Shown: positions 10,101 through 20,211 of the stretch, in pieces | How positions within the stretch are numbered: position 1 is the stretch's first letter | How the letters are laid out: each line of letters starts with the position of its first letter | From: Octopus vulgaris | Lineage: Eukaryota | Assembly (NCBI GenBank): GCA_951406725.2 | Contig: OX597833.1 | Span: 44,578,001 to 44,642,000 of the forward strand | Length of the DNA: 64,000 bases | Direction: 5' to 3' | Translations under genes and position numbers: made by a program | The notes under the pieces: model-generated | The model's input: the letters and a program-made list of their open reading frames with translations, nothing else | Databases searched by the model: none | Told to the model about the DNA's origin: nothing

Positions 10101-10849
10101 GACTTTAAAAGTTTCACGTGTTTGCTTAACACAATCGGTTCTCACATGCACTTACACAATCTCCATTCCTTCCGCTATTGAGTGTGGCATGTTGCAGAAA
10201 ATGCTAGAGATGTTCACTCAATGCATTCTTACAATTAACTAATGCGGTGAGGGTAACGTAGCAAAGAGTCGATTGATGCACCATCTTTGTTCAGTACAAA
10301 CAAGGGTTTGAACTAACATAATGACACTTGCAAACGAAAGGCTTGGTGCTTTTTGCGTATGTAAATTTATTTCTCTATTCACACAGTGTTATGGAATCCA
10401 GGCTACTTTTTCGTGCCCCACCCTATAAAAGACAAGAAGTTTGTTCACATACAAACGCCATAGATCAAAGGTTGACCTTATCAAGAATGACTTAGAAACG
10501 AATAACAATAGCAATTCTATTGGTTTTTGTTTGCCTAACATAAAACAGGTTCTAGTTCATATCTCACAGTTAAAGAATTAGCAGTAGAAAGATTTAACAC
10601 GGCAAATAATTGAAAGAATAAATAAATAAATAAAAACATAACGTTTTCTATAAAAGTAATCTCGTCCATAATTCAATTAAATGTCAATTCAAGATCTAGT
10701 ACTAAACATAAAGTTTTGGAATTTTTAAAGCGTTTCGTATATCTCAGCTCCTACATTTATACGTTTTGTCTTGATTTCCGACTACTTTACTATTTTAAAT
10801 TAATAAAAGGAATTGAAAGGTGTATTTCATTTTCCTTGCTTCATTTCAG

Positions 10850-10879
10850 CTCCTCCGAAAACTACCACTGCTAAACCTA
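10850..10879 (+). CDS. Gene A micro-exon M1 (30 nt): (A)PPKTTTAKP
   Basis: catttcAG|CTCCTCCGAAAACTACCACTGCTAAACCTA|GTAAGT; phase 1-1. Confidence 0.8.
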
Positions 10880-11574
10880 GTAAGTTCATTTTTCTCTTAT
10901 CTTTATTTCATTCTACAGAATTTCATTATTTTCTGTCCACTTGTAGGGAACATCTATCATATTTTAATAAATTCTCATAGATTTAAACTACTTCGTAAAG
11001 AGATGCCTTTCCCAGTCAGTTCGCTTTTCAAGCATATGTTCCCGAGTCCAAACTGACAGCACGTCGCCTTAGGATAGTGTCTTCAACTATAGCCCCAGAC
11101 AGGCCTATACGTTTTCGGTAAATTTATTTCGCTTAGTTCCGCTGGACTAACATGTCAGGCGTCCGGAGATAGATTCTCCTTATATATATATATATATATA
11201 TATATATATATATATATATATATATATATATATATTTACTTATTTATTTATTTTTTAATTTATTTGTTTATATATATGTATGTATGCATGTGTATTTGTA
11301 CGTATGTATGTATGAATGTATGTATGAATGTATGTATGTAAACCGACCTTTTCTGTTAAGGTAATCTCATCCATAATTCGATTAAATGTCAATTCAAGAT
11401 CGAATTCTAATCACAATGTTCTGGAATTTTTAAAGTCATTTCGTGTAGCTTAGCTCCTACGTTTAAATATCTTGTCTTGATTTCCCACTGGTTTACTATT
11501 TTAAATTAATAAAAGGAATTGAAAAGTGTATTTCATTTGCTGTATCGTATTTCATTTTTCTTGTTTAATTTTAG

Positions 11575-11592
11575 CTACTACGGAAAGACCGA
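11575..11592 (+). CDS. Gene A micro-exon M2 (18 nt): (T)TTERP; absent from unit B
   Basis: ttttAG|CTACTACGGAAAGACCGA|GTAAGT; phase 1-1. Confidence 0.75.
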
Positions 11593-11904
11593 GTAAGTAA
11601 CTTTTTCTCTATCTTAATTTCATTGTACAGAATTTCAATCTTTTGTGTCCACTAGTGGGACAAATTATGAGTGTCACGTCAAAACACTTTTACATCATTT
11701 CTGCCCTGTTGAGTTCTGAGCTCCAATTCTGCTAAGGTCGAGTTTCTCATGCTTTTGTCTTGCCAGATGTCAATGAATATAATACTGTCTAGTACCAGGG
11801 TCTACTTAAATTAACAGTTGCATTTCTCCAAACAATATAGCTTTATATCTATCCTATGTGATTCATTTGCTGCATCATATTTCATTTTCTTTGTTTAATT
11901 TTAG

Positions 11905-11937
11905 CTACTACGGAAAAAATAACTACCACTGTTACGA
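11905..11937 (+). CDS. Gene A micro-exon M3 (33 nt): (T)TTEKITTTVT
   Basis: ttttAG|CTACTACGGAAAAAATAACTACCACTGTTACGA|GTAAGT. Confidence 0.8.
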
Positions 11938-12294
11938 GTAAGTAAATTTTTCTCTTATCTTAATTTCATTGTACAGAATTGCATTCTTTTGTGTCCACTA
12001 GTGGTACAAATTAGCAATGTCTCGTCAAAAACTTTTACAGCAATTCTGTCCTTTTGAGTTCTGAGCTCCAATTCCGCTAAGGTCGAGTTTGTTATGCTTT
12101 CTTCCTGCCAGATGTCAATAATATAATACTGTCTAGTACCAGGTTCTATTTTTAATTCGTTCTCCAAAGTATCTTTATTATTCTGATGCAACGAAGAAAG
12201 CACTGCTATGGAACGAAATGAAAGCACTGCTTATCATACACATAACATTTACGTTGTCAGGAAGATAATTTTAAACGAAGTAATAAATTAGAAC

Positions 12295-17202: not shown

Positions 17203-17235
17203 CTACTACAAAACCGCCACTTACTGTAGGTTCAC
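17203..17235 (+). CDS. Gene A micro-exon M5 (33 nt): (T)TTKPPLTVGS
   Basis: ttttattcaAG|CTACTACAAAACCGCCACTTACTGTAGGTTCAC|GTAAGT; identical in unit B. Confidence 0.8.
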
Positions 17236-18244
17236 GTAAGTTTTTCTATCTTCATTTCATTCAACAGAATTCTGATCCTTGTTACTTTTATACGGAAAGC
17301 AGTGGATGCTTGAATTGATTCAACATTCCCTTAAATTTTTTCCTGTATTTAGGTGTGTTCCTTTATGTTGAGAGTTCAGATCCCACTAGGTTTTATGGGT
17401 CACTCATCCATCTGGACGTTAATAAAATAAGTAGTCAACTACCAATGTCGATCAAATCAATTGCCCATTTTCCTTTAAATGTGGGATTTTGTGCCTCTTA
17501 AAAATCAATATCATGTAGACGAAGTGGGGTAGCAAAGTCAGTCACTAACCAACTATGTTACATTACGTTCTGAGTTGCATATTATACGGTAACGTCGTCT
17601 CACATCCATTGAGTTCGATAAAATAAAGTATCACTTAAGTCCTGGGGTCGATATAATCAACCCATACTCTCCCTGAAAATATGCAGAATTGTATCCGATA
17701 TCAGAAATCAGCATTATCATCATTGCAGTTTGCTTTCTATTGTTTATTTTTTTTAATTAAAACAGATATATTGTATGGTGATGGTTTTGCTGCTAGCACA
17801 TCGGTCGTGATTATTTCAATTAGCTCCTTCTCTAGTACTTTTTCCTGTGTCGGGCTTTCGTGTTGCGACAAATTTTTCAGGAATGCATTATTCTTGTGGA
17901 TTCCTGCGTGCTCGCGCATACGCAGACATACTCTCACACACACACACGGACACATACATACATACACATACACACATACATACATACATACATACATACA
18001 TACATACATACATACATACATACATACATACATACATACATACATACATGCATGCATACCTGCATGCATACATAAATACATTCATACATACATACATACA
18101 TACATACATACATACATACATACATACATACATACATACATGCATGCATGCATGCATGCATACATACATACATACATACATACATACATACATACATACA
18201 TACATACATACATACATACATACATACATACATACATACATACA

Positions 18245-18790
18245 TATGAAATCTGTCGGAAGGATAATCCCGAGGACAAAGAAATCAAAACCCACAATAT
18301 GGTAGAAACCATTCCAATAAAAAAAAATATTAGTGGAATGTACCAGTGAAGGCCTCAATAAAATGTAAGCACAACAGACCTGATATAATGATTAGGGATT
18401 GGGTAGAGAAACTGTGCACAGTTGCAGACTTTAGCTGCCCAGCAGATTTTAGCATAAAGCTAAATATCAGTGAAAAAGAGAACACCTACGCTGACCTATT
18501 GAGAAATCTGCAGTTACTCTATCCAGCTTACAAGTTCAGGTTTATACCTGAAATTATTGGGGCCCTGGGATATGTAACACACTGCCTAAATACCAATCTT
18601 GAGAAATTAGGCTTCTCAAAACCAGAAAGGGGGAAGCTAATTCGAAGACTAGAGATCCAATCCATCACTGGAACTGTAAAAATCTGTAAAACTTTCCAGA
18701 AGTTTATCGTTTAAATATATATGAACATGTCTAGATATGCAAGTATACGCATGAGAATACATGCATAACACAAAATATACAAATCTGCAC
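18245..18790 (+). mobile_element. 5'-truncated RLE-type (R4/Dong-like) LINE inside a (TACA)n microsatellite
   Basis: HNRPDIMI..K.C..DFSCPAD..EKENTYADL..IIGALG restriction-like endonuclease motif; (CATA)n on both sides. Copy at ~52078-52610. Confidence 0.75.
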
Positions 18791-19345
18791 ACATACATAC
18801 ATACATACATACATACATACATACATACATACATACATACATACATACATATTGCTTTGAATTCGGTTTCTAAATCATTACAATTTCCTAACTTTCAGTT
18901 AGATATTTCAAACTGAGAATCAAAAAACAAATAAAATAGACCCACCGCGTATCTTCTACTATAGCCTCGAGCATTTGGTAGACAGAAACTGAAAAAAGTC
19001 CGTCGTGTGTGTGTGTGTGTGTGTACTAGATTACCCGTTACACGTTGGGTCACCAGTAGTTCAACGTACCCGAAAAAACTGCGTATCTCGGGAACCCGTA
19101 GTCCGATTTACGCGAAACTTGTTTTATTCCGTTTGTGTTCACTTAAGCATCCGATTCATGACATCTCCTGCATTTGTATCTTTCCTTCTCTTCTCGCCAG
19201 ACACTCAGCTCTCCGAGTGTCCGATTCCTGATCTCTCCTGCTTCTGTCTCTTTCCCTCTCTTCTACCAGACGCTCAGTCCTTGCTTTATCAGTCTCATCG
19301 ATCCTTCTATTCGCATGCCTGTCCCCATCTTGAGTAAAAAAAATT

Positions 19346-19790
19346 CGTAAAGGACCTGTTCGTACTTCGGTGTGAAATAATTGTTTCCACAGATCTTTTT
19401 CGAGTGCATTCAACGTATTTCACTTCCAAACCCACCGTAAGCCACTTTCTTCCGGAAAAGAAAGGGGAGAAGGGTTGTGGGGACCTCGGAGTTTCCCACC
19501 AACGGAGTTTGTTTTGTGATTTGCTTTTCTTTTCCAGATTATTTCGCTTGCTTTCAACGAATATGGCGTCGAAATCACGCGTAAACGGCTCCTTTCCCCA
19601 GAAAAGGAAAGATTTGGCAGTTATTTCTTGCACTCCCTTCTACCACGTAACAGTTATTTCCGGTCCTTTATCGCAGATAATTGCTACGTGGTAGCAGGGC
19701 GTGCTAGAATTAGCAGTGAAATCTTTGGAGGTGAGATACGTTGAATGCATTCGAATTATTTCACACCGAGCTTACGAACAGGTCTTTTAC
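19346..19790. mobile_element. Non-coding element with long terminal inverted repeats (MITE-like)
   Basis: GTAAAGGACCTGTTCGTACTTCGGTGTGAAATAATT..TGCATTCAACGTATTTCAC versus GTGAGATACGTTGAATGCA..AATTATTTCACACCGAGCTTACGAACAGGTCTTTTAC. Confidence 0.6.
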
Positions 19791-20163
19791 AAAATATTTA
19801 CTGCATTTTTAAAGTCATTTTCACTTTAAAATATTTTTAGATATGCCAAAAATAATTTGTCTAAGGATATTAACTTGAAAATAATTTTTAAAAACATTAA
19901 AATATTGTCTGTTTAAAGAAAACTATAAATACTTACTGTACAAACTTACATTTTTGAAATTCCATTCACTTAAAAATATTTGTAAATGATTAAAATATTG
20001 TGTTTAACAAAAACCAAAATAGAGCCATTTACTGTAAAACAAAATTCGTATTTTTTCGTTGGCAAGTCACTGATACTTTTGCACATCATAATCGAAAAGA
20101 ACAGAAAAATAATTAAAACCTCAAATATTCCCTTTCTGTATGATTATTCGTTTGTTTTTTTAG

Positions 20164-20211
20164 TTCCTAAGATAAAATTTGCTTGGCGTCGTCGACCAAA
20201 GTCTAACGCAG
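20164..20211 (+). CDS. Gene A exon M6 (48 nt): (L)PKIKFAWRRRPKSNA
   Basis: tttttttAG...GCAG|GTAAGT; phase 1-1. Conserved in unit B. Confidence 0.8.

Follow-up and report, generated by a model that had tools for sequence, protein, structure and literature searches.

How does an octopus immunoglobulin (Ig) gene come to carry a run of exons only a few codons long, and is the length of the protein segment that they encode set in the genome or by splicing? This question is raised by a stretch of 64,000 nucleotides (nt) of Octopus vulgaris DNA (contig OX597833.1 of assembly GCA_951406725.2, forward-strand positions 44,578,001 to 44,642,000), hereafter the window, in which a predicted gene, gene A, has six small exons (M1-M6) behind its second Ig exon. 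A preliminary description took these exons for a mucin stalk of symmetric micro-exons, any subset of which could be skipped. The analysis reported here points elsewhere: the stalk is probably set by the number of copies of an exon-plus-intron cassette that each gene contains, with inclusion of the copies by default and combinations of skipping at most minor.

The six exons lie on the plus strand, as do all the gene features below, at 10850-10879 (M1, 30 nt), 11575-11592 (M2, 18 nt, with 18-nt relatives in paralogs C and D), 11905-11937 (M3, 33 nt here and 36 nt in paralogs B-E), 13936-13953 (M4, 18 nt), 17203-17235 (M5, 33 nt) and 20164-20211 (M6, 48 nt). These positions and lengths agree with those first described, and it also holds that all six are multiples of three and phase 1-1; each is preceded by AG and followed by GT. 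The introns around them measure 0.3-3.4 kb, the donors are near-consensus (GTAAGT or GTGAGT) and the acceptors long and T-rich. The peptide of M1-M5 is 48% Ser/Thr with 7 Pro in its 44 residues; M1-M5 are likely coding micro-exons of a Thr-rich stalk which, judged by this composition, is probably O-glycosylated. The term mucin stalk may suit these five exons but not M6, which encodes a basic linker with the run Trp-Arg-Arg-Arg and ends Asn-Ala, as does the single linker exon of distant paralogs.

Homology between the small exons extends far into their introns. M1, M2 and M4 have ~230 bp of upstream intron in common at 83-90% identity (86-90% and BLAST E 1e-59 to 1e-87 against the flank of M4), and M3 retains only 43 bp of it (11862-11904). 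Downstream, the homology to the flank of M4 is longest at M3 (~350 bp), reaches 276 bp at M2 and stops after 68 bp at M1. The flanks thus bear out the proposal that M1-M4 are duplicates of one exon-plus-intron cassette. The motif quoted for the upstream sequence is present, with the reservations that the M1 copy has one mismatch and ends in CAG and that M3 lacks the first part. Cassette 1 (10618..10947) comprises the shared upstream flank, M1 and a short shared donor flank; cassette 2 (11316..11864), with flanks of the M4 class, adjoins M3 on its upstream side and leaves it its 43 bp; cassette 4 (13677..14340) has its core between two (TA)n runs and belongs to a class that is still multiplying in paralogs B-E. 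Compared with the genome, the M4 cassette gave 28 matches, counts that are lower bounds, with 26 in a single array of five genes and 2, short and weak, on another contig. A transposon was considered and ruled out on this distribution (at least 26 of the 28 matches inside the gene array): the near-confinement to the array indicates a repeat internal to these genes, not a mobile element. By eye, what we take to be a retroelement fragment lies in the M3-M4 intron (12480-12860) and travels with some cassette units. Short inverted duplications also lie inside cassette units (13438-13692 and 14344-14683), and self-comparison revealed palindromic insertions of ~200-300 bp of the same kind at 16901-17108 and 24488-24795.

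In trees of the flanks three classes stand apart, those of M1, of M3 and of the short 18/21-nt exons, the last still multiplying. Short-class flanks are 90-97% identical across genes, and those of the M1 class are 81-88% identical to the others. M5 and M6 are likely older copies of the cassette because their donor flanks, scored against those of M1, M3 and M4, beat 75 of 75 control donor-like sites, the resemblance being weak for M6; at the acceptor flank of M5, cassette homology was not above controls (20-38 of 213). M2 had been described as a hybrid of the 5' end of M3 and the 3' end of M4. This is true of the exon letters only: of the sites that distinguish the flanks, 6 of 8 upstream and 7 of 7 downstream carry the M4-type base in M2 (A3 being omitted upstream for its short flank and E4 downstream, where the flank is replaced), and these 13 of 15 sites rule out a recombinant M3/M4 cassette. 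Judged by them, M2 is a short-class cassette placed ahead of M3, not the product of a crossover between M3 and M4 cassettes; its 18-nt exon type may be of older hybrid origin or have arisen by deletion.

The cassette is present in five tandem gene copies, A-E, which contain 25 cassette exons in all. Gene B lies 30 kb downstream of A within the window, and three more copies follow. The exons number 4 in A, 5 in B, at least 5 in C (which has a 100-N gap), 7 in D and 4 in E, and they would add 33 residues in A, 36 in B (without one 17-nt exon), 53 in D and 35 in E. Across paralogs, the stalk varies by genomic copy number, from 4 to 7 cassette exons, a variation absent from the preliminary description although gene B lies in the same window. 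Their lengths are 18 (ten exons), 30 (five), 36 (four), 21 (four), 33 (one) and 17 nt (one); AG..GT is intact in all 25, and 24 are multiples of three. The duplications are recent: in D a stretch of 4.3 kb with two exons is duplicated at 99.7% identity, and in B the repeated unit measures 2.1 kb, at 97.1%. A microsatellite lies 235-241 nt upstream of 13 of the 25 exons. Length classes of the exons are multiples of three in five of six cases, against flank indels of 1 and 5 nt (P ~0.05, a weak difference). The single 17-nt exon belongs to gene B, and no other copy has a frameshifted Ig exon; this one case fits selection for frame in the working genes.

In gene A all junctions from the signal exon onward are phase 1, and therefore a duplicated exon survives only if its length is a multiple of three. 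The symmetry of the micro-exons permits skipping, as first described, but cannot be used as a sign of it because the Ig exons are also multiples of three and phase 1-1, and duplicated exons must be symmetric in any case. As reconstructed here, gene A encodes a predicted protein of 353 residues. Its signal-peptide exon (C20:44575490-44575622) is just upstream of the window; it is followed by the Ig1 exon, with a V-type fold (853..1173, 321 nt), the Ig2 exon, with a C-type fold (7098..7439, 342 nt), M1-M6, which make up 17% of the coding sequence, and a predicted last coding exon (21400..21485) of 28 residues, whose short hydrophobic tail and stop resemble a glycosylphosphatidylinositol (GPI) signal. 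The frame of this last exon is kept in 4 of 4 complete copies, a weak argument alone as the copies are 97% identical. When the terminal exons of three distant paralogs were compared with 899 windows past M6, this exon also came out best for all three, and the acceptors align. With a terminal-peptide profile, the last exons of these genes rank 1, 2, 5 and 13 among 11,009 open reading frames. Two other ends were ruled out: a last exon from 23437 onward, the frame of which is lost in paralog E, and the tail of the predicted protein P0003 (acceptor 21546), the frame of which differs between the A and the B and E copies.

Beyond residue 60 the best 19-residue hydropathy is 1.18 in gene A versus 3.4-3.7 in two family members of the transmembrane type. 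With the predicted last exon, where the stop follows the tail, gene A has no transmembrane helix with a cytoplasmic tail, and the name of Ig receptor, in the sense of a transmembrane protein, had to be abandoned. By eye, its end has a GPI-like pattern (small-residue site, spacer, hydrophobic end) homologous to the more hydrophobic tails of relatives, and the protein is likely GPI-anchored or secreted. The two Ig folds expected ahead of the stalk were recovered in a structure model of the O. bimaculoides relative P0004, built on an 18-sequence alignment: two beta-sandwiches span residues ~41-256, mostly with a predicted local distance difference test score (pLDDT) of 75-95, and the stalk is disordered (pLDDT <50). 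Domain 1 matches V domains with Z ~12 and a root-mean-square deviation (rmsd) of ~2 over ~100 residues, the top Foldseek match is a B7-H6 complex (E 1e-6), and the Ig pair matches nectin-3 with Z 11.5 and an rmsd of 3.8 over 185 residues. On the evidence of this model the ectodomain of the gene A subfamily consists of a V-type and a C-type Ig fold, as in the ectodomains of B7-H6, nectins and CEACAM. Identity to ectodomains of the B7-H6 and nectin type is 10-17%, which means a shared fold and no orthology. Sequence searches gave little: no Pfam match passed the cut-offs, whether with the two Ig exons or with 18 family members, the PDB yielded at best antibody light chains (E 0.001), and the ESM Atlas only unnamed mollusc clusters and generic Ig families.

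Amino-acid changes are concentrated in M6 (6 nonsynonymous and 0 synonymous between D and E), and the relative P0031 has a similar basic run preceding its tail. It is speculation on our part that this basic, Trp/Arg-rich linker could be a shedding or polyanion-binding site.

Among the public runs listed, none on record as RNA contained the exon. Four of the 24 listed runs, none recorded as RNA, were compared with paralog E from Ig2 to past M1. In contigs of two runs from one study, X5 (depth 75) and X6 (depth 266), Ig2 is connected through its last base with M1 over a distance of 5.5 kb; two bases at the start of M1 are unplaced at this joint, and the same occurs at the start of Ig2 beside a skipped repeat. 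Ig2 of X5 has 0 differences from E, while A differs from E at 2 bases. The X5 contig, a single record, runs on for 738 nt past the aligned Ig2 piece and has 467 nt ahead of it. The X6 contig stops 95 nt and that of a further run, X1, 30 nt beyond Ig2; X8 contains a low-depth unspliced piece. Since contigs of X5 and X6 join Ig2 to M1, the subfamily uses M1 as a real exon, and Ig2 and M1 are spliced together in paralog E.

The alternative that survives best is that combinatorial skipping acts on top of copy-number variation, a single gene then yielding a graded series of stalks that differ in length and glycosylation. We hold this for doubtful. Very short exons are frequently skipped, and all six of gene A are symmetric, 18-48 nt long and set in the introns described above; but their symmetry is accounted for without skipping, and their near-consensus donors and long T-rich acceptors count against it. 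The breaks of the X6 and X1 contigs so close to the end of Ig2 would suit several isoforms, whereas X5 passes through the region as one unbroken contig. No skipping joint was seen, a weak negative because Ig2 and M1 are the only exons in the stretch compared and because 693 joints were not displayed, and the two listed O. bimaculoides isoforms have identical stalks. Variation of repeats at the level of transcripts is nevertheless described for the schistosome mucins SmPoMuc, which have a similar architecture, in the passages compared here (PMC2576457).

A further alternative, quite improbable, is that M2, M4 and the 18/21-nt copies are for the most part neutral by-products of an unstable repeat, rarely or never spliced in, with only M1, M3, M5 and M6 of importance. 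In its favour, the copies are so young (up to 99.7% identical) that selection is unreadable from them, one exon is of 17 nt, and proportions of nonsynonymous differences at or above those of synonymous ones between paralogs are compatible with relaxed constraint. Against it, the splice dinucleotides are kept in 25 of 25 exons, the O. bimaculoides models contain further Thr-rich units past those resembling M1 and M3, and the exon length classes contrast, weakly, with the flank indels.

Several observations weigh against default inclusion of a stalk set by copy number. RNA-like support is confined to the Ig2-M1 joint in paralog E, and contigs drop rare variants, so that even frequent skipping may go unseen. 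The 738 nt that X5 has beyond Ig2 exceed the ~500 nt expected from E for the stalk and the untranslated region up to the (TA)n run, and the ends of X6 and X1 may reflect isoforms, paralogs or repeats. C and D are 99.56% identical over 27,997 bp and are separated by the 100-N gap (~91947-92046, extended window coordinates); C may be an assembly duplicate of D or a very recent copy, and the 4.3 kb repeat of D could be an assembly artefact. The exons are partly of period 3, so that slippage alone can yield changes by multiples of three. At the end of the gene, the terminal-peptide profile gives the last exons non-significant E values (0.58-5.2), and the tail of gene A is less hydrophobic than those of its relatives (best 15-residue mean 1.53).

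We nevertheless consider copy number with default inclusion the probable reading and propose for it the following scheme, in which we infer the inclusion of M2-M6, the glycosylation, the type of anchor, the recombination mechanism and the surface role. The basic plan of the family would be a signal peptide, a V-type and a C-type Ig exon, zero or one short linker exon and a hydrophobic last exon, with all junctions in phase 1. A small phase 1-1 exon would have been duplicated with its flanks in successive rounds, starting with M6 and M5, going on with the M1 and M3 classes and reaching the 18/21-nt class last. The duplicated unit would be an exon plus intron of 0.6-2.5 kb; microsatellites border its flanks, which at 90-99% identity would probably recombine by unequal crossing-over or conversion. 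The downstream frame and the anchor signal would be preserved only by exons of a length divisible by three, symmetry acting as a survival filter. Most cassette copies would be included by default, and the Thr-rich stalk would hold the two Ig domains off a predicted GPI anchor or form part of a secreted protein with the same tail. Stalk length would then depend mainly on the genome, i.e. on the paralog and probably the allele, with corresponding differences in reach and O-glycan load. The protein may have a part in recognition at the cell surface or in adhesion.

What suggests recognition is the tandem expansion together with proportions of nonsynonymous differences (pN) at or above those of synonymous differences (pS) between paralogs. 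For pooled pN>pS the one-sided P values of four uncorrected tests are 0.04 (D-E), 0.21 (A-D), 0.21 (A-E) and 0.24 (D-E, Ig exons alone); with one of these four at P 0.04, positive selection between paralogs is not established.

The second gene of the window, gene B, has its signal-peptide exon at 28307..28439 (the A copy of this exon matches the N-terminus of P0004), its Ig1 exon at 31410..31730 and its Ig2 exon at 36216..36556, the latter with 341 nt because a base is missing from an A run, which shifts the frame. Its cassette exons are at 41788-41817 (30 nt), 42901-42936 (36 nt), 44833-44849 (17 nt, the sole one that is not a multiple of three), 46840-46860 (21 nt) and 48987-49007 (21 nt), followed by M5 (51149-51181), M6 (53994-54041) and the last exon (55213-55298). 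Gene B is either a pseudogene, or the result of an assembly error plus a 17-nt exon that would have to be skipped. Elsewhere in the window we noted by eye what is presumably a mariner-like transposase remnant (8830-9380) and, at the window's end, a minus-strand frame that we take to be reverse-transcriptase-like (61500-64000).

The closest relatives add an outside view of the stalk. P0003 (CAI9737738.1), an Octopus vulgaris prediction 98% identical in Ig2, strings M1-M4 and M6 together, but was probably predicted from the same DNA and hence is not independent; it fuses the five tandem genes into one protein of 1202 residues, with Ig2 truncated in four of them. P0006 and P0038 appear to be similarly fused. 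The O. bimaculoides RefSeq model P0004/P0005, 78% identical in Ig2, has a similar stalk with other unit lengths. The stalks of its two listed isoforms differ only in the last 1-2 residues, and one isoform ends exactly as read-through of a cassette donor would. Protein searches returned no further isoforms and no O. sinensis orthologue, which is weak evidence. Distant paralogs show no cassette array, whether in five intervals from Ig2 to the last exon or in eight further blocks with mapped exons, in a scan that could miss unannotated micro-exons: between Ig2 and the last exon they have at most a single short linker exon. It is therefore probable that the array arose within this subfamily, O. 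bimaculoides being at least one other species to have it.

Around the array extends a large Ig family. A search of 1.84 billion representative sequences gave 32 matches, and the 12 looked up are all from Octopus or Argonauta, unnamed or Ig-like. Two single-protein searches found 46 distinct Ig1-type loci on C20, a lower bound for the family and some of them broken, which by hand count form clusters of 12, 5 and 29 loci near 0.86-1.1, 2.8-3.0 and 43.6-44.7 Mb. Most relatives end in GPI-like, more hydrophobic tails, and two have a true transmembrane helix and tail. One of the transmembrane type, P0008 (303 residues), is intronless at C1:165120493-165121401 and likely an intact processed retrocopy. 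A wider version of our scheme, in which an octopod V+C family of ~46 genes evolves fast and serves in recognising self, mates or pathogens, and this subfamily, with an independently evolved SmPoMuc-like array, varies its reach by copy number and combinatorial skipping, with M6 as a shedding site, seems to us unlikely as a whole. The large family is possibly of more interest than the micro-exons themselves. No description of an octopod V+C Ig family or of such an array was found in open-access listings searched by title and start of abstract, supplements and subscription papers being outside this scope; two of these listings covered 20 of 73 and 20 of 762 entries. Nor did any paper turn up that names six of the family loci.

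Small exons for stalks are familiar from vertebrates: the Ser/Thr/Pro stalk exons of CD46 (STP), CD45 (RA/RB/RC) and NCAM (MSD1) are small and O-glycosylated and tune stalk length. For the duplication itself the nearest precedent is SmPoMuc. In the passages of PMC2576457 compared, a 27 bp mucin exon is duplicated with its flanking introns as ~1 kb repeats, microsatellite-separated and >93% identical, in tandem gene clusters with differing repeat counts; the array is N-terminal with 1-20 copies, and transcripts have up to 100 repeats. Likewise, the octopus mucin exon is tandemly duplicated with flanking intron, its units are microsatellite-flanked (at the 13 exons counted above) and homogenised across genes (short class). 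The octopus array differs in its place, as a membrane-proximal stalk, in its 4-7 exons of unequal length (18-36 nt) and in belonging to a gene with two Ig folds, no Ig domain being mentioned in those passages. No homology between the two was seen in the searches, and they are taken as convergent; none of the 12 relatives looked up is from a schistosome, and no direct comparison to SmPoMuc proteins was made.

In micro-exon genes (MEGs), as presented in the parts of PMC4350168 and bioRxiv 10.1101/2023.06.21.545858 compared, very small symmetric exons supply most of the coding region, and their alternative splicing is on record. Gene A shares with them such exons, set in long introns, and a signal peptide. 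It fails the definition of a MEG because its micro-exons account for only 17% of the coding sequence, and these follow two Ig domains that are folded; a nearer MEG-like case is the composite VAL-6 gene (PMC4350168, same parts). In architecture, the initial analogy with Schistosoma thus stands for the exon array of SmPoMuc and not for MEGs. The butyrophilin-like BG genes of the chicken, according to the parts of PMC4046983 compared, are tandem Ig-family genes in which a run of 21-nt exons expands and contracts between genes and alleles. The octopus genes resemble them as tandem Ig genes with a variable run of tiny exons; the BG exons, however, code for a coiled coil on the cytoplasmic side of a transmembrane protein, and the octopus exons for an extracellular Thr-rich stalk. 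The mechanism of duplication has precedents, and the feature itself is real.

This locus offers a stage-by-stage case of a mucin stalk built by exon-plus-intron duplication, with M6 and M5, then M1 and M3, then a class still active. It is convergent with the arrays of schistosome SmPoMuc and chicken BG, in a lineage for which we found no such report in the cephalopod microexon and octopus literature, within the open-access scope given above. It also points to a sizeable Ig family of octopods, represented in the databases by entries that lack names and are in part wrongly modelled. If combinatorial skipping and a recognition function were true, the family would be a candidate for the diversification of surface molecules in octopus without adaptive immunity.

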